From: a plasmid
Length of the DNA: 64,000 nt
Sequence record: NZ_CP084013.1
Strand: one strand, 5' to 3'
The stretch's first letter is position 1; each line of letters opens with the position of its first letter. The notes under the pieces were generated by a model, which was not told where the DNA came from, made no database searches, and was given only the letters and a program-made list of their open reading frames with translations. This document shows, piece by piece, positions 15,695 through 59,599 of the stretch. The position numbers and the translations under genes are program-made.

Positions 15695-15801
15695 CCTTCC
15701 TCGCCAAGGATTCCCCCGCCTCTAAGCGAAGCGTAGGCGGGGGATGAATTGGCGTATCTATATATGTTATACTGTAATCAGTCGTATATGTTATAAACGA
15801 G

Positions 15802-16209: not shown

Positions 16210-16223
16210 GGAGGTGAACCATC

Positions 16224-28895: not shown

Positions 28896-29945
28896 TCAGC
28901 CCAACAAAACCCGCGACACCGCCCCCTCATCAGGCAACCCGGAATCCAACAATTCAGCCAAACGCGACGCAACACGATCGGCATCAACACCGGTGAACAT
29001 GCCACCCATCCATTCGGACATCAGCGTCCGGACATGCTCGCAGTCGGCGGAATGCACGTGACGTGCGGGACCTTTGCTCTCATCCACTACTTCAGCCTCA
29101 AGGGGAATATCAGCCGACTCGCTCTGCGCAGTCTGTCGCGTTGGAGCATCGGTGCGAGGATAATACTTGATCCCATGCCTGAACGGTTCGGCCCTCAAAT
29201 TCGGAGCCGCCTCCAAGACATTCGACAACGCCTGTTTGAACCTGCGCCGGAAGTCCTTCATCGGCAGGCCGGTGCCCTCGAACTGGTCATACAGTTGACG
29301 CCATGAAACGTAGGCGACGTGGTCGAGCCGGTATGTGCGGTACGTCAACCATATATAGACGTCCAACGCCCGCGCCGATTTGCCCAGACGCGAGATGACA
29401 TCCATGCTGAGTGGGACGCTTGGCTTCGACAGCTCGGCCCACATCTCGTCCGTGAACTGGATTGACGCGATGATGTCCTGTTCTGGCCTGAACTGTGTAC
29501 GGCCTTTTCTGGCGACGGTGAACGGCGTGCATTCGCCTTTGTTCTCACGACTCTCGTCGGTGTTCATGATGGAGATCGAGGTTCGCGCCAAGTTCATCAG
29601 CGTGTCCTCCGTCTCTTTCTGACAGCCGGAGTGGTTGGATATTCCGGTGTTGTCGCAGAATTCCTGGAAGCTGCCACGAAAGACAACAGTGTGGGTGTCC
29701 TGATCCACGTCGGGATTGTTCTTCATGCGAATCATGGACTGCACGTAGAGGAATATCAGTCGCGGGGTTTTCCCGTAGACCCATTCCTCGGGGCGACTGG
29801 GGGTTATGCGGACTGTTTCCCGACCGTTCGTTCTCTCTATGTAGGATGAGCTTGGTTTCGACACGGGGAAGAGGGCGAGTTTCGCCATGAGCGGCGGTGC
29901 GCCCGTGTTCATTTTCGTTGTGGCGATGGCGTTATTATTGGTCAT
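28896..29945 (-). CDS. repA: RepA-like plasmid replication initiator
   Basis: ACGGAG RBS. Winged-helix-like 'LDVYIWLTYRTYRL'. It is adjacent to the iteron array and paralogous to the ORFs at 51205-52185 and 61902-62666. Confidence 0.65.
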   Translation of the reverse strand: MTNNNAIATTKMNTGAPPLMAKLALFPVSKPSSSYIERTNGRETVRITPSRPEEWVYGKTPRLIFLYVQSMIRMKNNPDVDQDTHTVVFRGSFQEFCDNTGISNHSGCQKETEDTLMNLARTSISIMNTDESRENKGECTPFTVARKGRTQFRPEQDIIASIQFTDEMWAELSKPSVPLSMDVISRLGKSARALDVYIWLTYRTYRLDHVAYVSWRQLYDQFEGTGLPMKDFRRRFKQALSNVLEAAPNLRAEPFRHGIKYYPRTDAPTRQTAQSESADIPLEAEVVDESKGPARHVHSADCEHVRTLMSEWMGGMFTGVDADRVASRLAELLDSGLPDEGAVSRVLLG

Positions 29946-30035: not shown

Positions 30036-30273
30036 TTTCTTAGAATTTTGACACCTTTCTTAGAATTCTGACACCAAATTTAGAATTTGGACACCATTTT
30101 TAGAATTATGACACCTTTCTTAGAATTTTGACACCATCTCTGCGAATGCCATCGAACCACACCCCGATTGCCTACGATCAGAGCGGTCACAGCCTTAGAA
30201 TTTTGACACCCTCGCTTAGAATTTTGACACCGACTCTTAGAATTTTGACACCCGTTCTTAGAATTTTGACACC
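30036..30273 (+). repeat. iterons: 9 direct repeats of TTAGAATTTTGACACC (5 at 20-bp spacing, 4 at 21-bp spacing), putative oriV
   Basis: Repeats start at 30040, 30060, 30080, 30100 and 30120, then at 30195, 30216, 30237 and 30258. They lie immediately upstream of repA, on the opposite strand. Confidence 0.8.
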
Positions 30274-45139: not shown

Positions 45140-46625
45140 GGCTTGTCCCTGTCCAGCGGTAAAAGCGAGACATTCGTGATGATTGTCTCTCCCGCCTTTG
45201 ATTCCGTTTCCCCGAGGGGTTGCGGTGACGGAACATCATGGGATGGTTGGCTGCACCCCTGCGACGTCAAGCGTGTTGGCGTCGCACTGCATCACGGTAA
45301 GGTCGTAGCCTTTGTGACGCAGGTTCATCGCGGCTATCCGGTCGTCGTTCGACCGGTAGCCGCAGTTGCGGCAGCGGAACGTGTGCGTTTCCTTGTTGCG
45401 GTTCTTGCGGGACACGTATCCGCATCGGGGGCATGTCTGGCTCGTGTACGCTGGGTCCACTGCTATCGTGGCCTGCCCGTTGCGGGCGGCCTTGTATTCG
45501 ATGAACGAGCGGAGTTGGCTGAACGCCCACGAGACTTGCACGTAACGTTGTTGGACTTTCACGGTTTCCGCCGTATTGCGGATGCCTGTGAGGTCTTCGA
45601 GCGTGAAGAGCGTGTCCTTGCCGTACTGGTTGACGAGTGCCTTAGAGACCTGATGGTTGATGTCGGTCATCCAACGGTTTTCTCGACTGCCTATGGCTTT
45701 GAGACGTTTTCTCGCGCTGCGCGTGCCCCTGTGTTGCAACTGTTTGCGGAGTTCCTTGTATTTGCCGCGCCGGTGTTTCACCTCCTTCCCATCGTAGAAA
45801 ACGGTGCGCTCCCCGTCGTAGGAGGTAGCAAGGAACCGGATACCCAGGTCGATGCCGACGATGGTCTTCGGATGTTCCGTGGCATCCGGCGTTGGGATGG
45901 TGACGGGGATGAGCAGATGCCATTTGTCCCGCTTGCGGATGAGGCGTGCGGTTCCGAACCTCCCATGCCGGTATTGGTCGGGAATGCTGGCCCATTCGGC
46001 TTTCACTTTGATGCGCCCATCCATGACGGGGAGGCTGAACAGGCCTGTCTTGGTGGAGTACGAGTAGTCCCTGTTCCACAACAGGTCGGCACCGTCCGGC
46101 GCATACTGGGGTTTGATACTGTAATATGCTGGGATTTTCCTCCTCTTGCGCCTCTTCCCGTTCTTCTTACCTTTGCTCTCCTCGCGGAGGTTAGCGATTC
46201 GCGTGTGGATGGCCTTGTAGTTGGCGATGACCCGGCGTATCGCCGATTGGGTCATCTGCGCGAGCAGCCCATGGGTTTCGCGCAACTGGTGGTAGATGGC
46301 CTTGTTGATTTTCTTCTGGCTGAGCGTGTGCGTGGAGTCCACGTAGTCAGCCACGTCGTTGCAGCAGTCGGCGAACGTCGAACACAACGCTGCGAGAGCG
46401 TCCGCTTGCCGCCGTGTGGGCGATAGACGGACGCACATCGTCAACGTCAACTCAGCCATCAAACCTCCAATAAGACAAATAATATCATAAACTTAGTGGA
46501 AAGAAAAGTGGCGTTCACCCGCGACGACAAGCATCGCGGTACCCCGCCATAAACACTCATGGAATTGCCGAATCGCTGACTCTAGGAAAATGCCGGGTGG
46601 TTTTTACTTCCCGGCATTTTACCTG
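45140..46625 (-). mobile_element. solo-tnpB IS element (IS1341-like)
   Basis: tnpB only. An inverted repeat, AAAATGCCGGG...CCCGGCATTTT, at 46589-46622 flanks the 5' side. The omega-RNA region is expected between about 45130 and 45240. Confidence 0.6.
45236..46459 (-). CDS. tnpB: TnpB (IS605/IS1341 family)
   Basis: 'CPRCGYVSRKNRNKETHTFRCRNCGYRSNDDRIAAMNL' forms the zinc ribbon and RuvC-III motif. Confidence 0.8.
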   Translation of the reverse strand: MAELTLTMCVRLSPTRRQADALAALCSTFADCCNDVADYVDSTHTLSQKKINKAIYHQLRETHGLLAQMTQSAIRRVIANYKAIHTRIANLREESKGKKNGKRRKRRKIPAYYSIKPQYAPDGADLLWNRDYSYSTKTGLFSLPVMDGRIKVKAEWASIPDQYRHGRFGTARLIRKRDKWHLLIPVTIPTPDATEHPKTIVGIDLGIRFLATSYDGERTVFYDGKEVKHRRGKYKELRKQLQHRGTRSARKRLKAIGSRENRWMTDINHQVSKALVNQYGKDTLFTLEDLTGIRNTAETVKVQQRYVQVSWAFSQLRSFIEYKAARNGQATIAVDPAYTSQTCPRCGYVSRKNRNKETHTFRCRNCGYRSNDDRIAAMNLRHKGYDLTVMQCDANTLDVAGVQPTIP

Positions 46626-46649
46626 TTATACTGAATCTGTCCACATAGA
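46622..46649 (+). promoter_or_regulatory. conserved element motif
   Basis: TGTTATACTGAATCTGTCCACATAGAAA, about 32 nt before the ATG at 46681. Confidence 0.6.
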
Positions 46650-46680
46650 AAAAAGTGAAGTCAGGAGACCCAAATCCACC

Positions 46681-47505
46681 ATGCCCATCATCGAATTCGA
46701 CACGAAGATGCGAGGCTACGATCCCCAACAAGTCAATGACGCCGTAACCAATTTCCAGGACACCATCAACAAGTATGCGCAAGCAAACACTGATCTGAAG
46801 AGAACCCTGGATACGGTCAACAACCAGTTCACCCAGGCAAACCAAGACATCGATCAGCTGCAAGCCGAAAACAAGAAGCTCTCCGAACGGATCGAAGAAC
46901 TCGAAAAGCAGAACGACGATCTGGAAGCAAAACTCAAGAACAAGTACACGAGCGTGGGCGACGATGTGAGGAAACTCCTCGAAGACACCCAGACCGTTTA
47001 TCATGCTGCGGAAAAGAACGCAGCCGACATCAAGAACAAGGCGCTGCAGGAAGCTGAAAACATTCGCAAGCAGAGCCAGTCCGCCGCGGAGAAAGCGATA
47101 GTGGACGCGCGGCAGGTCGCCGAAAAGAACGTGAAGGAATCCCAAGCGAAGTCGAAGCAGATCATCGAATCCGCGCAGCAGTCCGCCGCACAGTTGCGTA
47201 AGGAAGCCGACTCGTATGCCACTGGACGGCAAAACATCGCGGAGCAGGCCGATGCAAGGGTTCGTGCGATTCTCGGCCGTCTTGAGGAGGCAAGCAAAGT
47301 GCTTGACAACGCCTACCAGTCCGGACGCAAGCCTAACGCCACTACAGTCCAGTCAGCTCCGAAGGATGCGCCAACACCGGTCATCGCCGGCCAGGCCACT
47401 AATCCGAACGAGGCGGATCTTGAAGACGATAGGACCATCGCCTTCGCTCAAATCCATGCGAAGAACACCGCATCCGCACCCGCGACCCCTGTTGACGCCC
47501 AATAA
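46681..47505 (+). CDS. DivIVA-domain coiled-coil protein
   Basis: The N-terminal 'FDTKMRGYDPQQVNDAV' is the DivIVA signature. The rest is a long coiled coil. Confidence 0.7.
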   Translation: MPIIEFDTKMRGYDPQQVNDAVTNFQDTINKYAQANTDLKRTLDTVNNQFTQANQDIDQLQAENKKLSERIEELEKQNDDLEAKLKNKYTSVGDDVRKLLEDTQTVYHAAEKNAADIKNKALQEAENIRKQSQSAAEKAIVDARQVAEKNVKESQAKSKQIIESAQQSAAQLRKEADSYATGRQNIAEQADARVRAILGRLEEASKVLDNAYQSGRKPNATTVQSAPKDAPTPVIAGQATNPNEADLEDDRTIAFAQIHAKNTASAPATPVDAQ

Positions 47506-47520
47506 GACCATTCCCGGAAC

Positions 47521-47763
47521 GTGAGAATCTTGATCCTCCAATACGTAATGGTTATGACCGGAGGATATGCCAGTTCATGGCTTATCCTCCATGTCGGCAT
47601 GCTGTTCGGGCAAGGCGCGAAGAACGCCGCTTCTCTGGACCGAATCAAGGAAGCCCGCTGTTGGAACATCGCATATTATCTGTGCGTCATCCTGACGTTC
47701 CTGTGCGTCATTGCCGGATCATTGGGTCTCATGCTCCTGTTCAAGAAGCTGATCATTGACTGA
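47521..47763 (+). CDS. hypothetical small membrane protein
   Basis: Two hydrophobic helices. A low-confidence call. Confidence 0.3.
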   Translation: MRILILQYVMVMTGGYASSWLILHVGMLFGQGAKNAASLDRIKEARCWNIAYYLCVILTFLCVIAGSLGLMLLFKKLIID

Positions 47764-47977
47764 AAAAACATCCCTCAAGCAGTCCCGTAATCCTTTCCTG
47801 ACCATCGGACGCTATGTCCGGCAGGTAATCGATGAAACCCGTAAGACGGTGACTCCAACCGCCCGCGAATGGATGGCCTGGAGTATTGCCGCATTCGTGT
47901 TCGTCATCCTGCTCATGATATTGGTCACGGGCATGGATTTCGGGCTCGGCAAACTCACTCTCATGGTGTTCGGGTGA
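47756..47977 (+). CDS. secE: SecE-like preprotein translocase subunit paralog
   Basis: 'RNPFLTIGRYVRQVIDETRKTVTPTAREWMAWSIAAFVFVILLMILVTGMDFGLGKL' matches the SecE pattern NPF..R.V..E.RKV.WP.R.E plus a TM helix and FG.GK. TTG start. Confidence 0.55.
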   Translation: MTEKTSLKQSRNPFLTIGRYVRQVIDETRKTVTPTAREWMAWSIAAFVFVILLMILVTGMDFGLGKLTLMVFG

Positions 47978-48183
47978 CGGTCACACATCCCGTGACCCTT
48001 GCCATGCTGCTATGGATGGGTATCGCCCTGCTCACGTTTCTTCTCATGAGCGTATGGACGGATAATCCACAGCATCGCAGCACCTATCGCCATTGGGCTG
48101 TCGCATACCTGACAGCCCTGATCATCTTCATCGCCATCTTCTATTCCGAAGGAACCCTATGGCCGTTCTCATCATCGTTTTGA
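47974..48183 (+). CDS. hypothetical small membrane protein between secE-like and secG-like
   Basis: GTGA overlap with the secE-like stop. Two TM helices. Confidence 0.3.
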   Translation: MTVTHPVTLAMLLWMGIALLTFLLMSVWTDNPQHRSTYRHWAVAYLTALIIFIAIFYSEGTLWPFSSSF

Positions 48184-48401
48184 AAACCATCGTCGCCGTC
48201 CTGAGCGTCCTGCTATCCCTGCTGATTCTTCTGCACAAAGGCAAGGGCGGGGGATTGTCCGACATGTTCGGCGGCGGCTTGACCGCAAACGCAGGCACAT
48301 CCGGGGTCGCGGAGAAGAACCTCAACCGTTGGACGGTCGGCATCGCGATCCTATGGGTTTTGCTGATCGTCTCGATCAGCCTCATCGCAAAAACCATCTG
48401 A
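48159..48401 (+). CDS. secG: SecG-like preprotein translocase subunit paralog
   Basis: GAAGGAA RBS. 'MAVLIIVLKTIVAVLSVLLSLLILLHKGKGGGLSDMFGGG...TSGVAEKNLNRWTVGIAILWVLLIVSISLI' is the classical two-helix SecG pattern with Gly-rich loops. Confidence 0.6.
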   Translation: MAVLIIVLKTIVAVLSVLLSLLILLHKGKGGGLSDMFGGGLTANAGTSGVAEKNLNRWTVGIAILWVLLIVSISLIAKTI

Positions 48402-48524
48402 CGAAACAGGAGACCTCATGCTAATTGCCATCATCTGCCTATTTACGGGCTTCACCCTTGGCTTCTTCACCGCAGCCCTATGCCAAGCAGCATCACACTC
48501 AGATTCTGACAGAAAGGACAACCA

Positions 48525-48707
48525 ATGAAAAACAACTGGTTCTGCCCCAACTGCGGGCAGCCGATGGAAGCGCAACGCCACGTGGACAATCCCACCGGCC
48601 GTATCACATGGACAATCGGCTGCCTCAACCCGAAACACTTCCACACGCGCGGCTACATGAACGCCGCCATCGCCGAAATCCAACTCGAAAAACTCCTCCA
48701 CCAGTGA
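48525..48707 (+). CDS. small zinc-ribbon protein
   Basis: 'WFCPNCGQPM...GCLNPKHFH'. Its stop overlaps the GTG start of the methyltransferase. Confidence 0.35.
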   Translation: MKNNWFCPNCGQPMEAQRHVDNPTGRITWTIGCLNPKHFHTRGYMNAAIAEIQLEKLLHQ

Positions 48708-50404
48708 AATACGTCAGCATCTTCAGCGGCATTGAAGCCGCCACCGTCGCATGGCATCCACTGGGATGGGAGCCGCTGGCCTTCAGCGAAATCGACCCAT
48801 TCCCCTCAACCGTCCTGCAACACCATTACCCGGATATCCCGAATCTTGGAGATATCACGAAAATCGATTGGAGCCCGTATGTGGGAGCAGCAGACATTGT
48901 TGTCGGAGGTAGCCCCTGTCAAAGCTTCTCTGTCGCAGGCAAGAGGGAAGGACTCGCAGGAGCTTCCGGACTCATGTTCGAATACATTCGAGCGGTACGT
49001 GAACTCCGTCCACGTTGGTTTGTCTGGGAGAACGTCCCAGGAGCGTTCACAAGCGAGCGGGGGGAGGCTTACCGCCAGCTCCTGTCAGAGATGGATGCGC
49101 TCGGGTATGGTCTGGCATGGCGAGTATTGGATGCGCAGTTTTTCGGTGTGGCCCAAAGACGCGAGCGTGTGTTCCTTGTTGGAAGTCTTGGAACCATGCG
49201 TTGCGCGGAAGTACTTTTTGAGCGCGAAAGCCTGTCGTGGAATCATCAGTCGAGCCGACAGAAGAGGCAAGCCCTTACCGAAGAGGCTCAGGAACGCGTT
49301 GGAGAAGCAGATCATGATTCTGGCTGCCTGAATCCCGGCGAAACCCAGAGTCGAAGGGTTTATCCGGCTTCCGGCGTATATCCGACGTTGTCCACGAGAG
49401 AAAAGTCAGGGCAAAATCAGGAAAGCGTTTTCACCCAGTTCGGTGATGATGTCGCCGGCACTCTCACCTCACGATACGATAGTTCCCCCTGCGTTGACCG
49501 TGGAGCAAACGTCGTCGTTGACGAACGGGATAAAGTATTCCTTTGCCAGACGGCGCAAACCGGCAGCAACGGGAAACTCGTCAAACAGGACGATGTAATG
49601 AACACGTTGGATCGGACGAACAGCACCGCAGTGGCCGCATTGGACTTCAATCCGACCGATGCCAGACTCCGGTATGCGAATGATGACGTCAGCCAGACAT
49701 TGACCGCACGGGCCGGAACCGGAGGCAACCAAGTCCCATTGGTGCAGGTGCAGCCGCTCGCGTTCCTGTATAACCAAGGTGCGAAGGCCCGGAGTCTAGG
49801 GATAAGTGAAATAAGCCCTACGTTAAAAACCGACCATAATCCGGTTGCAGCATTCGCTTCAAATCAGCGTGACGAGGTTCGTGAACTGGAAGTCGCAGGC
49901 GCATTGGCCGCGCAGCCTGGCATCAAACAGCAGACGTACATCTGCCGGGCCGACGGACAGACGAACGCGATGGAAGGCGAAAATCTCGCTCCCACGTTGA
50001 CCTCGCACGCGAAGAAGGATCCACCGCTCATCTATCCTGCTGAAGATTCAACCGGGGAAGATGAGCCTGTCACCTCGCAGATTCACGGCGGGAAACCCGG
50101 CGGCGGGAAAGGTGCCTTAATCCAACGGGATATGAGCGCCACATTGTCCACTCATAACACCCAGACGCCGATAACAGGCGACCACGAGAAGAGAGATCTC
50201 ACCGTCCGTCGGCTGACACCACGAGAATGCGAACGCTTGCAAGGCTTCCCCGACGATTACACCGATATCCCATACCGCAACAAGGAACACGCTCCGGACG
50301 GTCCCCGTTACAAGGCGTTGGGCAACAGCATGGCCGTACCGGTCATGCGATGGATCGGAGAACGCATTCGGACGGTCGAAGAAGCCGCCGAAACAACCGA
50401 TTAG
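48704..50404 (+). CDS. dcm: DNA (cytosine-5)-methyltransferase (Dcm-type), apparently orphan
   Basis: Motif I 'VSIFSGIEAA', motif IV 'GGSPCQSFSVAGKREG' and motif VI 'VWENVPG'. GTG start at 48704. No restriction endonuclease gene is evident nearby. Confidence 0.8.
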   Translation: MKYVSIFSGIEAATVAWHPLGWEPLAFSEIDPFPSTVLQHHYPDIPNLGDITKIDWSPYVGAADIVVGGSPCQSFSVAGKREGLAGASGLMFEYIRAVRELRPRWFVWENVPGAFTSERGEAYRQLLSEMDALGYGLAWRVLDAQFFGVAQRRERVFLVGSLGTMRCAEVLFERESLSWNHQSSRQKRQALTEEAQERVGEADHDSGCLNPGETQSRRVYPASGVYPTLSTREKSGQNQESVFTQFGDDVAGTLTSRYDSSPCVDRGANVVVDERDKVFLCQTAQTGSNGKLVKQDDVMNTLDRTNSTAVAALDFNPTDARLRYANDDVSQTLTARAGTGGNQVPLVQVQPLAFLYNQGAKARSLGISEISPTLKTDHNPVAAFASNQRDEVRELEVAGALAAQPGIKQQTYICRADGQTNAMEGENLAPTLTSHAKKDPPLIYPAEDSTGEDEPVTSQIHGGKPGGGKGALIQRDMSATLSTHNTQTPITGDHEKRDLTVRRLTPRECERLQGFPDDYTDIPYRNKEHAPDGPRYKALGNSMAVPVMRWIGERIRTVEEAAETTD

Positions 50405-50463
50405 ACAACAGAAACAGGTGGATCGTCGCAGAAGAGGGGGCGACGTTCCTCAAAAAAACAATA

Positions 50464-51213
50464 CAGCGATAGGCCACGATCTTGTTCAGGATTTCCTTTT
50501 GTTCGGCGAAATCACCAGAAGCAAGAAGAATCATGGCCGTCGCTCGACTCCGCAAGGAAAATCAAGTGGACAACACCCTCCTAGGAGATCAAGATCGTGG
50601 CCTATCGGTGTAAATGTATTCACCGATAGGCCACTATCGTTCGTTCTCGTTCTTACTGCTATAAAAGAGTATGTCCAGTATGTAGTATGACTATAAGCAC
50701 TGCCCGTCAGCCCTTATAGGAGAAGCGGTTTGAGCAGGTTCGTTACACCGATAGTCCACGGATTCGGCAGTGATATTCCACGGAAACGACACTGATAGGT
50801 CACTAAAACAGCAGCGATAGTCCACTATCATTGCATGGATACTCCACGTTGCAAGACCATCGTCAAAGGCGATTGCACCGATAGTCCATCATTGGATGCA
50901 CCGATAGGCCACTATCCGCGAAAAGTGCCGGATAGTGGCAGTATACAAGGCATGGAACCGTCGGATAAGCAACGCAGTAATACTGCGGAAGAAAGGTTTT
51001 TGCACCGATAGGCCATCAACAGAGACAAGAAAACAGCATCGATAGGCCACTACGTGTGGGATGAAATCCACGAATCAACTTCAAAAAAATTGGGAAACTG
51101 CACCGATAGGCCACGTGTCGATACAGCGATATGCCATCAGCATCAAAAACCGACTGCATTAAGCACTGATCTGCATCAGCGAATAAGGTGGGACGATTAG
51201 TGGCCTATCGCTG
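50464..51213 (+). repeat. array of about 13 copies of a 14-bp motif CACCGATAGGCCAC, in both orientations at irregular 20-60 bp spacing
   Basis: Copies at 50464, 50597(rev), 50621, 50746, 50790, 50811, 50875, 50898, 51003, 51037, 51100, 51124 and 51200(rev). The pair 50597/50621 forms a palindrome around TAAATGTAT. The array lies 3' of dcm and 3' of the RepA-like gene at 51205-52185. Confidence 0.75.
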
Positions 51214-52185
51214 CCAATCGCCCCGCCCCTCGTCCAAAGCACGCCGTTCCGCCTTGGGTGGGACGGACGTTGGCGACGGGTGCAGGATGATGCCGTCCCG
51301 GGTGGTTTCCACGTTCGCGGCGGGATACACGTCGTGAATCTTCTTCAATGCTTCACGGAACTTGGCTTTGAACACGCGGCGTTCCTTGATGCTGTCGCCG
51401 AAACGTCCGTGCAGCCAATCCCAATCCAATGTGAGGTCGTGATGCAGGTTGCGGAATGTTCCGGTCAGCCACACGTACACGTCGTAGGGGAGCACTGATT
51501 TGCCGGACAGCAGGTAGTTGGTGGCACGAGTGTCGAATGGTGCCGACTCCTGGGCGAGCCTGTCCCACACTTCATCGGTGAGGATGAACTTGGCGCCGCT
51601 GAAATCCTGATTATTGTTATCGTTCAGGAAGCTGACGGCCTTCACCATCTGCATGTTCACGGAGTCGAACCGATCCCGGTTGCCCGCAAACCCGGTTTTC
51701 TGCCTGATGCTGATATGACAGTACAGGAGACGGCGCAACTGTTCCTGCAAACGTTTCGATGACTGTCCTCCACGGGGTATGCCGAGCTCTTCGGACAACT
51801 GGTACATGCTGGGAATCGTGATGGTGTGCTGCGACGGGTCAACGGTCGGGGTTTTCCTTGTTCCCGCAGAGCGAATCTGCTTTGCCATCCACGCCATCAA
51901 CAGTCGGGGATATTTCCCGTAGGGGAAGTCCCTTGACCTGGTGAGGCTATCGATACCGGCTTCGAGGATGTATTCGACGGTACTGTTGTCTTTGCTGACG
52001 AAGTCGGTGCCTTCCGCCGGGGGAGTGGCGGGGAAAAGGGTGCTGGTGAGGATGCTGTGCCCGTACCAGATTTCCTTACTGTCCGGCAAACGGTTTTCGA
52101 TGTCTGAGATCGTGGCTACCCGGTCGAGCACGAGGTCGGTTGAATGGGTAGCTGGTTTCGTGTTGTCCGGACTGTTGTTGGTCAT
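51205..52185 (-). CDS. RepA-like DNA-binding/initiator protein (paralog 2)
   Basis: Shares 'YGK.PRL' ('FPYGKYPRLLMAWMAKQ') and 'YDVYVWLTGTFRNL' with the RepA-like protein at 28896-29945. Confidence 0.55.
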   Translation of the reverse strand: MTNNSPDNTKPATHSTDLVLDRVATISDIENRLPDSKEIWYGHSILTSTLFPATPPAEGTDFVSKDNSTVEYILEAGIDSLTRSRDFPYGKYPRLLMAWMAKQIRSAGTRKTPTVDPSQHTITIPSMYQLSEELGIPRGGQSSKRLQEQLRRLLYCHISIRQKTGFAGNRDRFDSVNMQMVKAVSFLNDNNNQDFSGAKFILTDEVWDRLAQESAPFDTRATNYLLSGKSVLPYDVYVWLTGTFRNLHHDLTLDWDWLHGRFGDSIKERRVFKAKFREALKKIHDVYPAANVETTRDGIILHPSPTSVPPKAERRALDEGRGDWQR

Positions 52186-52362
52186 GGTTCTCTATGGTAG
52201 CGGCAATCAGCGGAATACGAAAAAACGATGTTTGGTGGCGCTTGTCCGGGTTTTCCCCGGTGCGACACGCCGTATATCAAACATATTTTTTTGTTATTAA
52301 CCGTTGATATTTCAACATTATGGCTTGTTTATAGGGTTTCTCTTTTTTGACAGCATCAAAAT

Positions 52363-52392
52363 ACTTGTTATACTGAATGTGTCCACATAGAA
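52363..52392 (+). promoter_or_regulatory. conserved element motif; the downstream region lacks a clear intact gene
   Basis: GTTATACTGAATGTGTCCACATAGAAATG. The next recognisable coding feature is the tnpB remnant. Confidence 0.5.
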
Positions 52393-52741
52393 ATGAAAGA
52401 GGTTCAAGGATCCATCAAATCGGATCATTTCTTCGACTTCTCTCAAGACTGCAATCCGACAAAAGCGGATCATCCCGGAGCAAGACCGGGGCAGTCGCGA
52501 AGCATCCTGCGTAGGAAGCCAACCACTACACCACGCACGTGATGCGGACGCTTGAAAACCGAAGAGAGACACCAAAAACATTCGTGTCCAAGGCAACTCT
52601 AGCCCGCATGGGCGTGAGGACAAGACCTTGGACCATACGCCACCCTTGCAAGGTGGCAGCAGTAAAGACATGGGTTGAACGGCTGAAGTTCACGCCGTTC
52701 AACCCATATCACCTGTTCAGTTCGGCCGGTTCTGGTTTCGG

Positions 52742-52900
52742 ATGTACCGCGACTACAATGCGGCCCTGAACATTCTCGACGCGGCAGGGCTTGCCGAGTC
52801 GTTAAACGCGCATGGAGACGGTATAAGACTGCGCTTGGCTTCGGCCAAGCGCAGCAGCCGTCAGGGAAGTGCGAACCCTACAGGCGGAACGCTTGCGCGT
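52742..52900 (+). pseudogene. TnpB C-terminal remnant (RuvC-III 'RDYNAALNI'), with a possible adjacent omega-RNA-like structured region
   Basis: 'MYRDYNAALNILDAAGLAESLNA' is only the extreme C-terminus of a TnpB. The following 52850-52990 is rich in hairpins, for example GGAACGCTTGCGCGTTCC. Confidence 0.4.
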
Positions 52901-53285
52901 TCCGCGCTGGGAATCCCGGTGCTAAAGCACCGGGAGGAAGTCAATGGGGCTGACAGGCTTTCGATAGCCTGCCGGAAACCATTTGCTACGTGCCGGAGGC
53001 CGGTAAGGACAACCGTCATCAACCTTGCCACAAGAATAGACGCCAACACCGTTTCTTCTTCCCGTTTCACCCTCGTAGCGTGAAACCCGACTTTGATCCC
53101 ATTGCCGATTAACGGGTCAAAGCCGGAAAACTTTGAATCGGACTGGTCGGACAGTCGGACGATGGATTCGCCCGACCAGTACATGAACATCGTCTACAAG
53201 CCGTGCGGGTTCGCCGAACGCACCCGTCCACGGATGATCTTCCCCACGCAAGTGGGGATAAACCTACGCACGTGACAGCAAGCAA

Positions 53286-53335
53286 AGGCTGACAGCAGGC
53301 CAGATCCGAGTTCGATTCTCGGCAGCTCCACGACC
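53286..53335 (+). other. tRNA 3'-half-like fragment (T-arm + acceptor strand only)
   Basis: CCGAG TTCGATT CTCGG CAGCTCC A has a canonical T-loop, but there is no matching 5' acceptor strand upstream. Confidence 0.3.
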
Positions 53336-53438
53336 CTGATCCATCTCCCATGAGCTTGTGCAGACTCACGGTCTGCGGGTACAGATGAATCGGGCACGGT
53401 ACGCATCGCACCGTGACGGACGACAGAAGCGATGCACC

Positions 53439-53520
53439 GGTGGTGTGGCCCAGCGGCGACGGCAGCAGACTGTAAATCTGCGACAAGGAAACACCGGAGG
53501 TTCGAGTCCTCCCGCCACCA
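53439..53520 (+). tRNA. tRNA-Tyr (anticodon GTA)
   Basis: Acceptor GGTGGTG/CGCCACC. Anticodon arm GCAGA CTGTAAA TCTGC. Long variable arm. T-arm GGAGG TTCGAGT CCTCC. Close to the E. coli tRNA-Tyr layout. Confidence 0.8.
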
Positions 53521-53708
53521 CTATCCGCCTGGTTGCAAACAGGCGGATTAACAGGTAGCGGCGCCTTCAAGGCCGTGCTGTGGTTTTCGTTTGCACACAG
53601 TATCTAAACAACAAACGGATTTTATCCGCTGTCAGGCCAGTCTCATTAGTCTGACAGCGAACGGTAAAAGCCGGAATGATACGCGCCATGAGACGACGCG
53701 TTCCGGCC

Positions 53709-53768
53709 GGCTTCGTAGCTCAAACGGCGGAGCATGCATGGTTGGTGGTTCGAATCCACCCGGAGCCA
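53709..53768 (+). pseudogene. truncated tRNA-like element lacking an anticodon arm (60 nt)
   Basis: Acceptor GGCTTCG/CGGAGCC, D-arm GCTC...GAGC and T-arm GGTGG TTCGAAT CCACC. Only 10 nt sit where the anticodon arm should be. Confidence 0.4.
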
Positions 53769-54025
53769 CGTTTTTGACAGGTCTTACAACCGGAGAGTCG
53801 AGGACTGTGAAGAAAAACTGGAAGAGCGTGCAAATCCTAGGTCGCACGCTTGGAAGGGGAGGTTTCGCAGGAGGTTAGGAAAACCGGTGGAGACAGTCTA
53901 AACACGCGAAAGAATCAAGATGAAAGCATCGTGGTACTGGCTTAAGACGGTGCCAGAATCTGAGGAAATCGCGTTTAATAGGGCACGTACGTAGCTGGTA
54001 AGCCACGGAGTCCTGTCAAAAATAT

Positions 54026-54099
54026 CGGATTGTGGCGCAGTTTGGTAGCGCACGTGCTTTGGGAGCATGGGGTCGCAGGTTCGAATCCTGTCAATCCGA
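54026..54099 (+). tRNA. tRNA-Pro (TGG)
   Basis: Acceptor CGGATTG/CAATCCG. U8. Anticodon arm CGTGC TTTGGGA GCATG, with G37. Confidence 0.8.
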
Positions 54100-54179
54100 C
54101 TCGGAGACCAGCCATCCCTCTTTCGGCTGGCGGACTATACGTCACCGCCGTGCGACGTATCCGAAAAAAGCACGGCAAT

Positions 54180-54254
54180 GCGGATGTGGTGCAGTGGCAG
54201 CACGCCTGCTTCCCAAGCAGGAAACCGCGGGTTCGAACCCCGTCATCCGCTCCA
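54180..54254 (+). tRNA. tRNA-Gly (CCC), CCA encoded
   Basis: Acceptor GCGGATG/CATCCGC. Anticodon loop TTCCCAA. T-loop TTCGAAC. The 3' end reads TCCA. Confidence 0.8.
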
Positions 54255-54389
54255 TCCGGAAAACCAAAACAATGGATCTGATCCAACAATGGGACTCGTA
54301 ACCGTCCTTTCCATGGGACGTTTCCGGAGAAACATGGACGAACAGCCTCGGCATGGGCGCACATCGTCTAGGAAGAAAACATGCCAGTC

Positions 54390-54461
54390 GCCCCGGTAGC
54401 TCAGAGGAAGAGCAGGTGCCTTTTAAGCACTGGGTCCGGATATCGTAATTCCGTCGGGGCA
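54390..54461 (+). tRNA. tRNA-Lys (TTT) with a non-canonical T-arm
   Basis: Acceptor GCCCCGG/TCGGGGC. Anticodon arm GGTGC CTTTTAA GCACT. The T-region CGGA TATCGTAAT TCCG lacks the GTTC/TPsiC consensus. Confidence 0.55.
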
Positions 54462-54625
54462 CGATGCTTGGTACATCGCCGAGCATAAGCGCATCAATCT
54501 ATTATCGGATAGGCTGCGGCAACTTCTTCTTCCGGCCGCGCGCGAAACAAGGGAAGGAAAACACACAGTGCGACGGACCAGGGAAGGGCCTATAACCCAG
54601 ATCCCATAACAGTCCGTCGTACGGT

Positions 54626-54697
54626 GCCTCTGTAGCTTAAATGGTAGAGCAACGGTCTGAAGCACCGTGGATGCTGGTTCGATTCCAGACGGAGGCA
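54626..54697 (+). tRNA. tRNA-Phe (GAA)
   Basis: Acceptor GCCTCTG/CGGAGGC. Anticodon arm ACGGT CTGAAGC ACCGT. Confidence 0.75.
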
Positions 54698-55025
54698 CGA
54701 AGCAATCCATCCGATCAATGGACTGCTTTCAGGGAGTGATCGAACAATCGCATCGGAAACGAGGCGATAAGATGAGCCGGGCCCGGCAGGGTGGTTTGCG
54801 ACCGAACCGGCGGCACGTCCAGAGGGGATCTGACATGATCTCGTTTGTCCTCGACGTTGCTGGTAAAACCCAATCCAGTCTCCCGATTCCCCTCCATCTG
54901 TCATTCAGGACGGATGGGGAGGACGCTCTTTTTGCAGCGATGGTCTCCGGAGCGACATCAATGAGGACCATGCCGAACACGGCCCGGCACAGGCGTACGT
55001 CGTTAAAGGAACGAAATGTGCCATC

Positions 55026-55101
55026 GCCCTCGTAGCTCAATCGGATTCAGAGCGTTGGTCTACGGAACCGGAGGTTGCGGGTTCGAACCCCGCCGAGGGC
55101 A
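55026..55101 (+). tRNA. tRNA-Arg (ACG)
   Basis: Acceptor GCCCTCG/CGAGGGC. Anticodon loop CTACGGA. T-arm GCGGG TTCGAAC CCCGC. Confidence 0.8.
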
Positions 55102-55152
55102 CTCGGAGCAGGAAGCTATTCCGCTGCCTATCTTCGGCTTCCTGCTCCACAT

Positions 55153-55227
55153 GCGTCGGTAGCTTAACGGCAGAGTACCGGTCTCCAAAACCGGTGGGTG
55201 TGAGGTCGAGACTCACCCGACGTGCCA
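55153..55227 (+). tRNA. tRNA-Trp (CCA), CCA encoded
   Basis: Anticodon arm CCGGT CTCCAAA ACCGG. T-arm GTGAG GTCGAGA CTCAC. The 3' end reads G-CCA. Confidence 0.7.
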
Positions 55228-55352
55228 GGACGGTATTGTTTGGCTCCTTACTCACTCACGGATTCGTCAAGCCGAATGATACCGTTCCACCCGGTTCCGA
55301 TCGTCGTTTGAAGGATTTCCTATTCTCTTCGGCTGTTCGACCGGAACCATCG

Positions 55353-55434
55353 CCCCGTTGGCGGAACTGGTAGACGCATCCGGCTCAAACCCGGATTCCT
55401 GACGGAGTGAGGGTTCAACTCCCTCATGGGGCAC
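55353..55434 (+). tRNA. tRNA-Leu (CAA), type II
   Basis: Acceptor GCCCCGT/ATGGGGC. Anticodon arm TCCGG CTCAAAC CCGGA. Long variable arm. T-arm GAGGG TTCAACT CCCTC. Confidence 0.8.
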
Positions 55435-55687
55435 TATCCGTTGGAACCTTTTCGCACTCGCTTTGAAAAGATTTCAACGGATATTCTTCCGATTGGCGTG
55501 CCTAGTTTCTTTCTTCTTTCATTGACAGGTACGGCATGTTCCAGCTGCCTTGGAGTCGGACAGTGGAAGAAAAAAACGACTCCAAATAATCTTGGATGGC
55601 CGGTTTGAAAACAGATAACCAATGCGAAATTACTCCTTTGGAAAAGGGTTGTCGCTTTTTCTTGAACCACCCGGCCATCCACCATCC

Positions 55688-55762
55688 GCTTCCGTAGCTC
55701 AGTGGAATCAGAGCAGACGGCTTCTAATCGTCCGGTCGTGGGTTCGAATCCCACCGGGAGCA
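55688..55762 (+). tRNA. tRNA-Arg (TCT)
   Basis: Acceptor GCTTCCG/CGGGAGC. Anticodon arm GACGG CTTCTAA TCGTC. T-arm GTGGG TTCGAAT CCCAC. Confidence 0.8.
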
Positions 55763-55812
55763 CGAGATCCACACGAATACGTCAACCAGTTTGTTCCTTC
55801 GTGCGGATCGGT

Positions 55813-55897
55813 GGAGTAGTGGCAGAGCGGTCGAATGCGACTGTCCCGAAAGCAGCAGGGGCGCAAGCCCCCGGAGGTTCGAATCCTCCCTACTCCG
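55813..55897 (+). tRNA. tRNA-Ser-like (CGA), type II, with unusual C33 and an A27:C43 mismatch
   Basis: Acceptor GGAGTAG/CTACTCC. Ser-type D-arm. Anticodon arm ACTGT CCCGAAA GCAGC. Variable-arm hairpin AGGGGCGCAAGCCCCC. T-arm GGAGG TTCGAAT CCTCC. Confidence 0.55.
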
Positions 55898-55976
55898 CGA
55901 ACCCCGCATGAAAATCGTTCCCATGAGGGGTTTATCGAGGTTTGGCCGGTGTGCCCCGTACTGAAAACACTGGCAT

Positions 55977-56062
55977 GGATGGTGGGCCGTGCGGCAAAGG
56001 CGCAGTCCTGCTAAGACTGTTGGGGCGGAAGTCCCTGGCGAGTTCGACTCTCGCACCATCCG
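55977..56062 (+). tRNA. tRNA-Ser (GCT), type II
   Basis: Acceptor GGATGGT/ACCATCC. Anticodon arm CAGTC CTGCTAA GACTG. Long variable arm. T-arm GCGAG TTCGACT CTCGC. Confidence 0.8.
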
Positions 56063-56179
56063 CTAGCCGATCTGCAGTGATAGGCCACGGGATAGGACCT
56101 GGAATCCAGTCAGCAAAACGGGTTGGATCGGCATGGCGGAACGCAGTCGGGCATACGTGTCCGATGCGTTCGCGCACAT

Positions 56180-56250
56180 TCCTCCTTGGTGTAACGGCAG
56201 CACACGGGTCTTTGGAACCCATAGTCCTGGTTCGAAACCAGGAGGAGGAG
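56180..56250 (+). tRNA. tRNA-Gln (TTG)
   Basis: Acceptor UCCUCCU/AGGAGGA, with the U1:A72 pair typical of bacterial tRNA-Gln. Anticodon loop CTTTGGA. T-arm CCTGG TTCGAAA CCAGG. Confidence 0.75.
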
Positions 56251-56358
56251 CTTAGCGGCAGCACCTCGAATTGATTTTCCCTCTACACTCGATTCGACGT
56301 TTGTTGTACCGGACATACAGGAGGTCAGGCGCCAACCCAAGCCGCGAAACGACGCCAC

Positions 56359-56431
56359 GCCCTTGTAGCTCAGTGGATAGAGCGTCCGTCTCCGGAACGG
56401 AAGGCCACGAGTCCGATTCTCGTTGAGGGCA
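56359..56431 (+). tRNA. tRNA-Arg (CCG)
   Basis: Acceptor GCCCTTG/TGAGGGC. Anticodon arm TCCGT CTCCGGA ACGGA. T-arm ACGAG TCCGATT CTCGT. Confidence 0.7.
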
Positions 56432-56526
56432 CGCACGAAAACTCCGCCAACCATAATGCACGGAGCCCTTCTTCTCTTCTCTCTCAAACCGTCGCGCCTC
56501 GTACGGCTCGTGCATCACGAGGCAAC

Positions 56527-56599
56527 GCCCTTGTAGCTCAACGGATAGAGCGCCGGTTTCCTAAACCGGGCGCAGCCGGTCCGACTCCGGCCATGGGCA
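56527..56599 (+). tRNA. tRNA-Arg (CCT)
   Basis: Acceptor GCCCTTG/CATGGGC, with one U:U mismatch. Anticodon arm CCGGT TTCCTAA ACCGG. T-arm GCCGG TCCGACT CCGGC. Confidence 0.7.
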
Positions 56600-56603
56600 C
56601 GAT

Positions 56604-56678
56604 GCCTTGTTAGCTCAGTCGGTTAGAGCGCGGAGCTCATAACTCCATGGTCGTTGGTTCAAGCCCAACACGAGGCAC
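56604..56678 (+). tRNA. tRNA-Met (CAT), elongator-type
   Basis: Acceptor GCCTTGT/ACGAGGC. Anticodon loop CTCATAA. T-arm GTTGG TTCAAGC CCAAC. Confidence 0.75.
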
Positions 56679-56809
56679 TAGGATACCGTCGTCAACGTCA
56701 CCGCCTGTTCTCTCGATCCATGGGGAATGGGGATGGAGCGATGGATGGCATTGCAGCTTTTAGTCCTTTCAGCTTAGGCTAAGCCGTTCAGCGTCGGCAT
56801 CCGATAATC

Positions 56810-56883
56810 GCATTGCTAGCTCAGTCGGTTAGATCACCCTGCTCATAACGGGGAGGTCGTTGGTTCGATTCCAGCGCAATGCA
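56810..56883 (+). tRNA. tRNA with CAT anticodon and CCC/GGG anticodon stem (initiator-like stem with paired 1:72; Met or Ile2)
   Basis: Acceptor GCATTGC/GCAATGC. Anticodon arm CCCTG CTCATAA CGGGG. T-arm GTTGG TTCGATT CCAGC. Confidence 0.65.
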
Positions 56884-57014
56884 CGAGTGCCGTATTTTGA
56901 CGGTTCCCGCACTCGGTAAAAACGGAACCGTTGGAGTCCCGACCGGCCTCCGTCGTGATAAATCCCCGGTCAGGCAAACGCATGGGTCGTACGATCATGA
57001 CGCGCAACCGTGCG

Positions 57015-57084
57015 GGGCGTTGGTGTAATGGCAGCACGCCACCCCCTGTGGGTGGAGATCCGGGTTCGAATCCCGTGGCGTCCG
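57015..57084 (+). tRNA. tRNA-Gln-like (CTG), slightly irregular
   Basis: D-arm nearly identical to tRNA-Gln(TTG). Anticodon arm CCACC CCCTGTG GGTGG, with C33. T-arm CGGG TTCGAAT CCCG. Acceptor pairing GGGCGTT/GGCGTCC includes G:U pairs. Confidence 0.5.
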
Positions 57085-57125
57085 CTAAGGAATCCGCTTC
57101 TGATACGGTGTGCGGATTCCTGTTT

Positions 57126-57197
57126 GCGGTGTTAGCACAACGGTTAGTGCCTCAGTCTTCCAAACTGATTACGCGGGTTCGATTCCCGTACACCGCT
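57126..57197 (+). tRNA. tRNA-Gly (TCC)
   Basis: Acceptor GCGGTGT/ACACCGC. Anticodon arm TCAGT CTTCCAA ACTGA. T-arm GCGGG TTCGATT CCCGT. Confidence 0.8.
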
Positions 57198-57615
57198 CGA
57201 TACGATTCCATGCCCGTTGGGAGTTCCCGGCGGGGAAGCCATGACCATGCGACTCGTGTCCGATGATCCGCGCCTCCGTTTGTTCGACGGACACGCGGAT
57301 ATCGCCGGCGCCCATCATTCCAGGATGATGCGAACAGCCCCCGTCGGAGGGGTCGGCGCGAATCCGATCTGCCCATCCGCCAAGTGCGGACAGGGTTTCC
57401 TGAGTCGTAATCGATTACGCCTCTTGTCAGCCGATCCACATGATGTGGAAACGGTCTCGGTGGAGCATGGGCGTCATAGCCCGTGATCCTCGTCATGCCT
57501 CATGCCGTAGTATGCGCGTCCACCGCAAGCATGAGTGCAAGGATCCGGCACGAGTGGCCGGATCGATTGTGGACTGTGCGGATATTGCGACCTCGCAAGG
57601 GTGGTATCCGCACAT

Positions 57616-57689
57616 GCTTTCGTAGCCCAACCGGTAGAGGCAACAGTCTAAGGAACTGTCCAGTCCGGGTTCGAACCCCGGCGAAAGCA
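57616..57689 (+). tRNA. type-I tRNA with apparent anticodon AAG (identity uncertain)
   Basis: Acceptor GCTTTCG/CGAAAGC. Anticodon arm ACAGT CTAAGGA ACTGT. Short variable arm. T-arm CCGGG TTCGAAC CCCGG. An AAG anticodon would read Leu codons, but the fold is not a type-II Leu tRNA. Confidence 0.5.
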
Positions 57690-57965
57690 CCAGCGGAAGC
57701 AACGGCGTCAACGCCACCCGATCCGGTTCGAACGTCTGACGGAACGGGAACGATGCTACGGTAGGTTCTCTCCATAACTGGGACCCGTAACCGTTGCAGC
57801 GCCCACTTCCGCTCATATTCTTGCGGAATATGATGTCAACGCCACCACCCGCCCGCTGCCATATTGGGGCGGAGTGGAACGATGGTCAAGGCGCAGGCCT
57901 GCACCTCAGTGGCCTGAACAGAACCGCCTCTCCAGCATCGTATCCGCAACACCGCTTCGTCCTTT

Positions 57966-58040
57966 AACGGTAGGATGCTCTGTTTTTTTTTGGAGTAATG
58001 CGGGTTCGAATCCCGTCGAAGCACGATGGGCCCAGTGGCC
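57966..58040 (+). pseudogene. tRNA-like element whose anticodon region is a T9 homopolymer (degenerate Lys-TTT-like or slipped)
   Basis: Acceptor GCTTCG/CGAAGC and T-arm GCGGG TTCGAAT CCCGT are present, but the anticodon arm reads CTCTG TTTTTTTTT GGAG. Confidence 0.35.
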
Positions 58041-58162
58041 ACATGCGAAAAAACTGGGTTCCCGAATGGGAGCAGTCTGTGGCCGATGGCATGAACCGGC
58101 CGCAGGACAAGCATCCCTGCCTCGCATGGCCCATCCGCCGTTCCTCATGCCGGAACGGTTCC

Positions 58163-58235
58163 GCCGTCGTAGCTCAGCTGGCAGAGCAGCGCCCTCGTAA
58201 TGCGCAGGTCACCGGTCCGAATCCGGTCGATGGCT
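58163..58235 (+). tRNA. tRNA-Thr (CGT)
   Basis: Acceptor GCCGTCG/CGATGGC. Anticodon arm GCGCC CTCGTAA TGCGC. T-arm ACCGG TCCGAAT CCGGT. Confidence 0.75.
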
Positions 58236-58259
58236 CTTTCTCCACTAAAAACCGACCTG

Positions 58260-59599
58260 TTTGGCCTTTCGCTGTTTGGTGTGGGTGGGTCTGTCAGGTG
58301 GTGACGGTGCTGAGGTCGAGTTTGCCGCAGGTCAGGTAGATCATGGTGCTGAAGTAGCCCATGTTCTTGAATCCGCGGGCTCGGGTCTTGACGTTCTGGA
58401 TGACGCTGTTGAGTCCTTCGAGGATCGCGTTGGTGTAGGGGTGGTCGAAGTAGGCGAGGATGTCCCGCCAGTGGCGGCGTATCTGGCGGGCGAACTCTTT
58501 CATGGGTTCGAGTCGGGAGCGCGTCATCCACGAGCACAGACGCTTGAGGGCCGTCTCGGCCTCGGCTCGATCGGCGCTGGTGTCGTAGATGTCCTGGAGG
58601 GTCTCGCGCATCTGACAGGCGCGTCCGGTTTTCAATCGTCGCCGTTGCAGGCTGCGCTTGGTTTCCAATTGCAGGCCGGTCAGGTTCGATTCGTTCCTCA
58701 ACCACAGGTACTTGGTCCGCTTGAGCAGCGCGTTGCCGCGGGCCTCCTGTTTGCGGACCTTGTCGACGGCCTCGTTGGCGTGTTTGATCACGTGGAACTT
58801 GTCGATGATTCTCGCCGCGTTGGGCAGCCGCTCGCGGATGCCCTTGGCGAACCCCAGGCTCATGTCGCAGGTAACCAGACGCACCCGGTCGGGATCGCCG
58901 TTGTGATCCATGAAATCCCGCGCGAACCGTTTGATCGTGGTCGAGTCCTTGCCCGGGACCACGCAGATTACGTTGCGCTCCACCAGGTCGGCGACCACGG
59001 TGATGTACCGGTGGCCCTTCCGGCTGGTCTCGTCGATGCCTATGGCCTCCACGCCCGTGTAGTCCTCGTAAAGCCTCGCCTCGTCCACGTAATGGCGGAT
59101 GAACCGCCACAGGCGGGTGTCATGTTCGCCGACCTGCTCGGCGATGTCCGCGACCGGCTGGCTTTTGGCCAGCTCCACGACCATCGCCTCGAACAGGAGC
59201 GTGAACCCGCTTCCCGGCCTCGCCCACGGCACCGGGACCGCGTGCACGCCGTGGGCGGGGCACGTCACGCGCGGCACGCCCGCGTGAATGAACGCCTTGT
59301 ACTGGAAGAAGTTCAGATGCCGCCACACGCGCTCCCTCGCGTCATGCACCGGACACGCGGCCTCGCCGCACCCCGGTTCCGGGCAGGGGAACCGCGAACC
59401 CGCCGCGAACCCGATCGCGATATGCAGTTCCCGTCTGCCGTCCTCCTCGTCACGGAACTCCACGCCCGACACCCTCCACGGGTCAGGCAGTTGCAGAGCG
59501 GCGGTGAACAACGACGTGGTATCCATACCCCCCAAACTACCCGACCAGCACCACCACCCCCCGACCCACTCACCCACACCAAACAGCGAAAGGCCAAAA
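58260..59599 (-). mobile_element. ISL3-family insertion sequence
   Basis: 28-bp terminal inverted repeats with one mismatch (24 bp are perfect): GGCCTTTCGCTGTTTGGTGTGGGTGGGT at 58260-58287 is the reverse complement of 59572-59599. No target-site duplication is obvious. The insertion lies about 25 bp after the last tRNA. Confidence 0.8.
58294..59526 (-). CDS. ISL3-family DDE transposase
   Basis: 'MDTTSLFTAALQLPDPWRV...' with the N-terminal zinc-binding region and C-terminal DDE region characteristic of ISL3 transposases. Start taken at the internal 'MDTTSLF'. Confidence 0.8.
   Translation of the reverse strand: MDTTSLFTAALQLPDPWRVSGVEFRDEEDGRRELHIAIGFAAGSRFPCPEPGCGEAACPVHDARERVWRHLNFFQYKAFIHAGVPRVTCPAHGVHAVPVPWARPGSGFTLLFEAMVVELAKSQPVADIAEQVGEHDTRLWRFIRHYVDEARLYEDYTGVEAIGIDETSRKGHRYITVVADLVERNVICVVPGKDSTTIKRFARDFMDHNGDPDRVRLVTCDMSLGFAKGIRERLPNAARIIDKFHVIKHANEAVDKVRKQEARGNALLKRTKYLWLRNESNLTGLQLETKRSLQRRRLKTGRACQMRETLQDIYDTSADRAEAETALKRLCSWMTRSRLEPMKEFARQIRRHWRDILAYFDHPYTNAILEGLNSVIQNVKTRARGFKNMGYFSTMIYLTCGKLDLSTVTT

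Follow-up and report, generated by a model that had tools for sequence, protein, structure and literature searches.

A repeat array on a Bifidobacterium longum megaplasmid is very probably the RepB-bound replication origin of the pMP7017 family

The plasmid sequence NZ_CP084013.1, of which one stretch of 64,000 nucleotides is analysed here (the window), contains about 750 bp of short repeats at 50464-51213. What do these repeats do? Are they an origin of replication, a locus that controls copy number, a centromere-like partition site, or merely copies of a host repeat that happen to lie together? We conclude that the array is very probably oriV of a megaplasmid of the pMP7017 family, with iterons bound by RepB, the product of the adjacent gene at 51205-52185 (-). 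The enrichment of the motif, the orthology of its sites, the anatomy of the array and its pattern of conservation are established for the window itself. That such an array serves as oriV in the pMP7017 family is already known, and the versions found in B. longum have already been compared in print.

The repeat unit, CACCGATAGGCCAC, is found 14 times in the window at up to two mismatches; 12 of these matches are in the array and only 2 are in the other 63 kb, which makes the array about 500 times as dense in this motif as the remaining window. Over the whole window the count expected by chance averages 0.43, and none of 100 dinucleotide-preserving shuffles reached 14. With up to three mismatches a thirteenth array site is added, at 51124. 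One more unit, the degenerate copy at 50768, is known from its exact 22-bp register and from its alignment to a better copy in pMP7017, and the array is therefore composed of 14 sites. A first-pass annotation of this DNA had counted about 13 copies over 750 bp, which is accurate. It had also placed the sites in both orientations, and this is so, though they are mostly direct, with 12 on the + strand and 2 (50597 and 51200) on the - strand. Its description of the sites as irregularly spaced is right for the array as a whole, but not for those at 50746, 50768, 50790 and 50812, which are exactly 22 bp apart and are followed by a fifth, degenerate unit at 50834. What was taken for a true palindrome at 50597-50634 is instead an inverted pair of sites, with arms of 18 nt that are 94% complementary, around a non-palindromic 10-bp spacer, TAAATGTATT. 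The genes on either side had been correctly recognized: a C5 cytosine methyltransferase gene ends at 50404, and a gene for a RepA_C-domain protein, 51205-52185 (-), is at the other side.

Sequence comparison places the window in a megaplasmid of Bifidobacterium longum that belongs to the pMP7017 family. Across 50400-52300 the window is 97.8% identical to NZ_CP143940.1, a complete 183.8-kb B. longum plasmid (183,781 bp), and 85% identical to pMP7017, the 190-kb conjugative megaplasmid of B. breve JCM 7017. A search of a plasmid collection returned five matching records, all five of them Bifidobacterium megaplasmids.

The repB/iteron locus of pMP7017 from B. breve JCM 7017 was dissected by Dineen et al. 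2021 (PMC8313286). Its iterons, B1-B18, have the consensus hvrTGGmCTATCrsTGhmdh, with B18 located further off (PMC8313286); the core of this consensus, TGGCCTATCGGTG, is the reverse complement of CACCGATAGGCCAC. A repB fragment with the repeats replicates autonomously in both B. breve and B. longum, and mini-replicons that have repB and the repeats only, with no par genes, are stable (PMC8313286). In EMSA, every probe with a repeat was shifted by purified RepB, but the promoter and coding region of repB were not (PMC8313286). Point mutants identified the critical bases as GGnCnAnnR, and the change 8C>A abolished RepB binding (PMC8313286). Replication of pMP7017 was abolished by loss of B12-B17 or of the AT-rich DNA that separates B15 from B16, and removal of B2-B4 from mini-replicons decreased their stability and left the copy number unchanged (PMC8313286). 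These results on binding, on the region needed for replication and on stability were obtained with the orthologous plasmid, and would be expected to extend to the window by analogy.

How closely does the array correspond to that of pMP7017? Orthology was assigned by aligning the window with both NZ_CP143940.1 and pMP7017; in this three-way alignment the array corresponds site by site, one to one, with B1-B18, including B18. The B-numbering used here was reconstructed from statements in the text of PMC8313286, not taken from its figure. By this reconstruction there are 17 pMP7017 sites, counting the degenerate CAGTGATAGTCCAT, and the numbering fits every clue in that text: the 17 sites, the 3 bp between B2 and B3, the presence of TTTTACACC at B5 and B9, the convergent B16/B17 pair, and the AT-rich stretch between B15 and B16. 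The features of the window are as follows.

50464-50477 (+): iteron CAGCGATAGGCCAC, ortholog of B18; outside the pMP7017 minimal replicon
50597-50610 (-): iteron, perfect match, ortholog of B17; inverted partner of B16
50621-50634 (+): iteron, perfect match, ortholog of B16
50635-50745 (no strand): AT-rich stretch, the spacer between B16 and B15, defined by GC content and conservation
50746-50759 (+): iteron CACCGATAGTCCAC, ortholog of B15; opens the 22-bp phased block
50768-50781 (+): degenerate iteron CAGTGATATTCCAC, ortholog of B14; carries the equivalent of 8C>A
50790-50803 (+): iteron CACTGATAGGTCAC, ortholog of B13; critical G6 altered
50812-50825 (+): iteron CAGCGATAGTCCAC, ortholog of B12; final intact unit of the phased block
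50876-50889 (+): iteron CACCGATAGTCCAT, ortholog of B11
50899-50912 (+): iteron, perfect match, ortholog of B10
51003-51016 (+): iteron CACCGATAGGCCAT, ortholog of B8
51037-51050 (+): hybrid iteron CATCGATAGGCCAC, flanked on the left by B7 sequence and on the right by B4 sequence
51101-51114 (+): iteron, perfect match, ortholog of B3
51124-51137 (+): degenerate iteron CAGCGATATGCCAT, ortholog of B2, 23 bp from B3; 8C>A-equivalent
51200-51213 (-): iteron CAGCGATAGGCCAC, ortholog of B1; overlaps the repB stop codon
56075-56088 (+): orphan iteron CAGTGATAGGCCAC, between tRNA-Ser and tRNA-Gln; all critical bases intact

The two loci share the gene order of repB followed by the array downstream, the iteron consensus, B18, the AT-rich B15-B16 stretch and the inverted B16/B17 pair. 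They differ in the number of sites, 18 in pMP7017 against 14 recognizable in the window. Site B9 is missing from the window, as it is from other B. longum megaplasmids, and so are B5 and B6, while B7 and B4 are fused. Compared with NZ_CP143940.1, which is otherwise 98% identical, the window has lost about 150 bp, and with them B5 and B6, at the hybrid site 51037-51050. Because this deletion ends inside the CGATAGGCCA cores that two iterons have in common, recombination between iterons removed B5 and B6, and the alignment indicates that iteron number in these plasmids can change through recombination between repeats. The window has no hptX, and it also lacks the DnaA-box-like TTTTACACC sequences. 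For the B. longum megaplasmids it was reported that the iteron region is conserved, that hptX and some of B2, B6, B7 and B9 are absent, and that one to three extra iterons are present outside the replicon (PMC8313286).

The left end of the array also differs between the two plasmids. In pMP7017 (L002 3093-6037) the interval from B18 to B17 is interrupted by a 2.8-kb MmeI-type restriction-modification cassette, and upstream of B18 a piece of the 3' end of dcm is left over. The window has full-length dcm beside B18, and B18 is contiguous with the rest of the array because the cassette has not been inserted. B18 and B17 with their flanks (50462-50487 and 50587-50612) form a 26-nt inverted repeat, 92% complementary, with 99 nt between the arms. 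The orphan iteron at 56075-56088 is 3.9 kb upstream of repB and is kept in NZ_CP143940.1, at 104506, where it is one of the few sites on that plasmid outside the array.

All five of the bases that are critical for RepB in pMP7017 are kept in 11 of the 14 array sites. The exceptions are the equivalents of B2 and B14, which carry the 8C>A-equivalent change, and of B13, which is altered at G6. Since B13 and B14 are both affected, the phased block has two intact and two degenerate units. A critical base is likewise changed in B13 and B14 of NZ_CP143940.1, so the set of sites that is occupied may differ from that in pMP7017. The loss of iterons by recombination, the degenerate units within the essential part and the iterons that vary together with their Rep proteins all bear on how many sites are needed for initiation.

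The stretch between B16 and B15, 50635-50745, has a GC content of 0.43, falling to 0.36 at 50640-50700, against 0.56 for the window, and is presumed to be the DNA-unwinding element. Conservation is not uniform along the locus. Between the window and pMP7017 identity is 96.7% for the B17/B16 pair, 92.8% for the AT-rich stretch and 88.2% for the phased block, compared with 85.7% for the repB coding sequence and about 79%, with many indels, for the outer sites. This gradient suggests that the core is under more constraint than the repB gene and the outer sites under less. Within 50400-51300 no DnaA box TTATCCACA was found at up to one mismatch. An Rfam scan of 50000-58500 placed no RNA family within the array, its only matches being to the tmRNA and tRNAs upstream of repB, and promoter and terminator scans gave counts at or below the level of shuffled sequence.

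The protein that would bind the array is encoded next to it. The repB gene, 51205-52185 (-), encodes 326 aa, and its stop codon is overlapped by the last array site. RepB is 89% identical to pMP7017 RepB at the amino-acid level over its full length and nearly identical to it in the C-terminal DNA-binding and dimerization part; this value is inside the range of 88.75-89.43% given for twelve other bifidobacterial megaplasmids (PMC8313286). It contains the Pfam RepA_C domain (E 2.3e-10), which is above the Pfam cut-off in all nine family members scanned. As an initiator of the Rep_3 / RepA_C family, RepB would be expected to have two winged-helix domains. A search of NCBIfam with RepB assigned no family. 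Searches of the PDB, with RepB alone and with a profile of nine members, gave no meaningful match and none to RepE or pi, and a single-sequence AlphaFold2 model was unusable (pLDDT 38, pTM 0.27). Phyre2 models of RepB had been built on RepE and pi (PMC8313286), and the link of RepB to these initiators therefore comes from Pfam and from that modelling. Upstream of repB, no iteron-like operator was detected at the promoter at up to three mismatches (52186-53444), so that the autoregulation that is part of the classical model for iteron plasmids is not seen here.

By analogy with pMP7017, initiation might proceed as follows. RepB would sit on the 22-bp phased sites B15-B12 (50746-50825) and on the inverted B16/B17 pair (50597-50634), which flank the AT-rich stretch 50635-50745. 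The resulting nucleoprotein complex would presumably open the AT-rich DNA, and theta-type replication would begin there. The outer and more variable sites, B11-B1 (50876-51213) and B18 (50464), would not be required for initiation; they would add segregational stability, and may pair origins by handcuffing or titrate RepB. A switch between monomer and dimer may also take part. Melting of the AT-rich stretch, the monomer/dimer switch and handcuffing all belong to the model that was inferred for pMP7017, whose RepB is purely dimeric in solution and still binds iterons (PMC8313286).

Much of this scheme is familiar from the iteron-containing theta plasmids, such as F (RepE/ori2), R6K (pi/gamma ori), pSC101, pPS10 and RK2. 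As in those plasmids there is a plasmid-encoded initiator whose sites, each about 20 bp long, are repeated, an AT-rich region is bordered by a block of direct repeats with a 22-bp period, and the copy number, as known for pMP7017, is about one per chromosome. The window departs from them in several respects. Its iterons are downstream of rep rather than upstream, the spacing of most of its sites is irregular, with two sites inverted, and a DnaA box is missing from its array, as from the B. longum versions of the locus. Nor does the RepB of pMP7017 bind its own promoter, where the window has no iteron-like operator, and that protein is dimeric yet able to bind DNA.

A downstream array has a different function in plasmid P1, where incA is made up of nine iterons downstream of repA and is a control locus only, the origin iterons, incC, being upstream of repA. 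Could the array, or its outer variable half, likewise be a locus for copy control, incompatibility or handcuffing by RepB that is distinct from the origin? In both loci the Rep-binding repeats follow the rep gene on its 3' side and do not all point the same way. The array has far more sites than initiation requires, the outer sites change rapidly and their number is not constant, and handcuffing is proposed in the model of PMC8313286. We nevertheless consider a separate control locus possible but rather doubtful. The copy number of pMP7017 is still about one per chromosome after deletion of B2, B3, B4 or B9, and the essential origin, B12-B17 with the AT-rich stretch, is within the same array (PMC8313286). 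Unlike incA, then, the downstream array would include the origin, and deletion of outer sites had no effect on copy number; control would thus be only an added role for part of the array, not an alternative to the origin.

The other roles that have been suggested are further from the evidence. The first-pass annotation listed a centromere-like partition site among its candidate roles, and it gave the binding protein as unknown; such a site would be bound by an adaptor of the ParB/ParR type and moved by a plasmid ParA. We consider such a centromere very unlikely. RepB binds these repeats directly in pMP7017 (PMC8313286), a system with an 89%-identical RepB, and in naming the product of the second RepA-like gene as one candidate partner that annotation had the right protein, as judged from the EMSA with pMP7017 RepB, but missed the role in replication. 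Its statement that the window has no ParA is borne out, as the ParA of this family has no relative there by tblastn. The search for parAB that it recommended gives no support to a partition site, since about 64 kb separate the array of NZ_CP143940.1 from the sole annotated ParA of that plasmid (45.4-46.0 kb). A cluster of short sites on both strands would suit a centromere, as would the destabilization of pMP7017 mini-replicons by loss of B2-B4 at unchanged copy number (PMC8313286). However, these mini-replicons have no par genes, and the effect therefore needs no ParA or ParB. A centromere of the ParABS or ParMRC type was rejected, given the distance of ParA from the array in NZ_CP143940.1 and the lack of a ParA relative in the window.

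That the motif is a dispersed REP-like host repeat, clustered here by chance, has next to no probability, even though the unit is short and a few matches with two mismatches are present elsewhere. When the motif was searched over a full replicon, as had been proposed, using NZ_CP143940.1 as the closest complete one, 15 of its 21 sites (up to two mismatches) fell in 0.9 kb, at 109654-110552, and the remaining 183 kb had just 6. This clustering argues that the motif is not a dispersed repeat on the replicon; together with the density in the window, where 12 sites fall within 750 bp and 2 within the other 63 kb, it is the reason for rejecting a REP-like repeat. The array is element-specific, as the first-pass annotation had held, and in related replicons the equivalent position next to rep is occupied by co-varying forms of the repeat.

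These relatives are consistent with an origin. In a scan of one genome per species, RepB relatives with 54-61% identity were found in B. callitrichidarum, B. miconisargentati, B. rousetti, B. santillanense, B. aerophilum, B. callitrichos and Pseudoscardovia suis, all with the RepA_C domain. Among the loci of other Bifidobacterium species, a repeat is present just downstream of rep in L007 (CGATACTCCA, 12 copies) and in L009 and L010 (ACGATAGTCCA, 9 copies each), all with RepB relatives of about 60% identity. In each of these three, 4-5 units are phased at 22 bp beside an AT-rich region of TTATAG repeats, and the layout is as in the window, where a site at the 3' end of rep is turned against the majority of the others. 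L009 and L010 also have perfect TTATCCACA DnaA boxes on both sides of the array. The downstream repeat sites of L011, with a RepB relative of about 60% identity, are all oriented as rep; L012 has no such repeat motif, and L008 and L013 end at contig ends. A layout that is conserved while the sequence of the repeat varies together with its Rep protein fits a Rep-specific origin.

The position of the array agrees with the strand composition of the plasmids. The minimum of the cumulative GC skew is at 48,840 in the window and, after detrending, at 111,920 in NZ_CP143940.1, in each case 1.4-1.6 kb from the array, in agreement with the published skew switch of pMP7017 (PMC8313286).

A second set of phased repeats is present at about 30 kb in the window. 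Nine copies of GGTGTCARAATTCTA, spaced at 20-21 bp, are located at 30041-30273 (-), upstream of the repA ortholog at 28896-29945 (-). In pMP7017 the corresponding repA repeats number eight (A1-A8) and form a promoter region bound by RepA that does not support replication; a repA fragment whose promoter carried these eight phased 15-bp repeats failed to replicate, and disruption of repA was possible (PMC8313286). For annotation, it would thus be the array described here, and not the phased repA repeats at 30 kb, that marks the functional origin of these megaplasmids of gut commensals. The same replicon is already in use in the low-copy shuttle vector pRD1.3.

The methyltransferase gene that adjoins the array, 48425-50404 (+), encodes a protein for which the closest solved structure is M.HaeIII, specific for GGCC, with a match that extends over the catalytic motifs only. 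GGCC is present in most of the iteron cores, where it overlaps the bases critical for RepB. It is conceivable, although a long shot, that the outer iterons (B1-B11, B18 and the site at 56075) form a device for segregation or pairing that depends on RepB and is independent of ParAB, or that GGCC methylation by the adjacent C5 methyltransferase tunes RepB binding and times initiation. The adjacency of the genes and the published effect of B2-B4 on stability are the grounds for this suggestion.

Other features of the surrounding DNA are recorded here. Just upstream of the methyltransferase gene, 46597-48400 (+) encodes homologues of DivIVA, SecE and SecG, as annotated in the near-identical NZ_CP143940.1, which elsewhere encodes SecY, DnaB, SSB and type I-E Cas proteins. 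Two segments of the window, 15735-16838 and 45226-46334, break its 97-99% collinearity with NZ_CP143940.1, which suggests strain-specific IS insertions; their matches, at only 73-74% identity, are to TnpB/IS-type genes at other places in NZ_CP143940.1. Upstream of repB there are about 20 tRNA genes (53439-58236, +) and, directly upstream, a full-length tmRNA gene (52946-53333, +; Rfam RF00023, 84.5 bits). The tmRNA and tRNAs of pMP7017 have been described and shown to be transcribed (PMC10832533). The tag peptide encoded by the tmRNA of the window, ANTVSSSRFTLVA, is one residue different from the published ANTVSSSRFTLAA.
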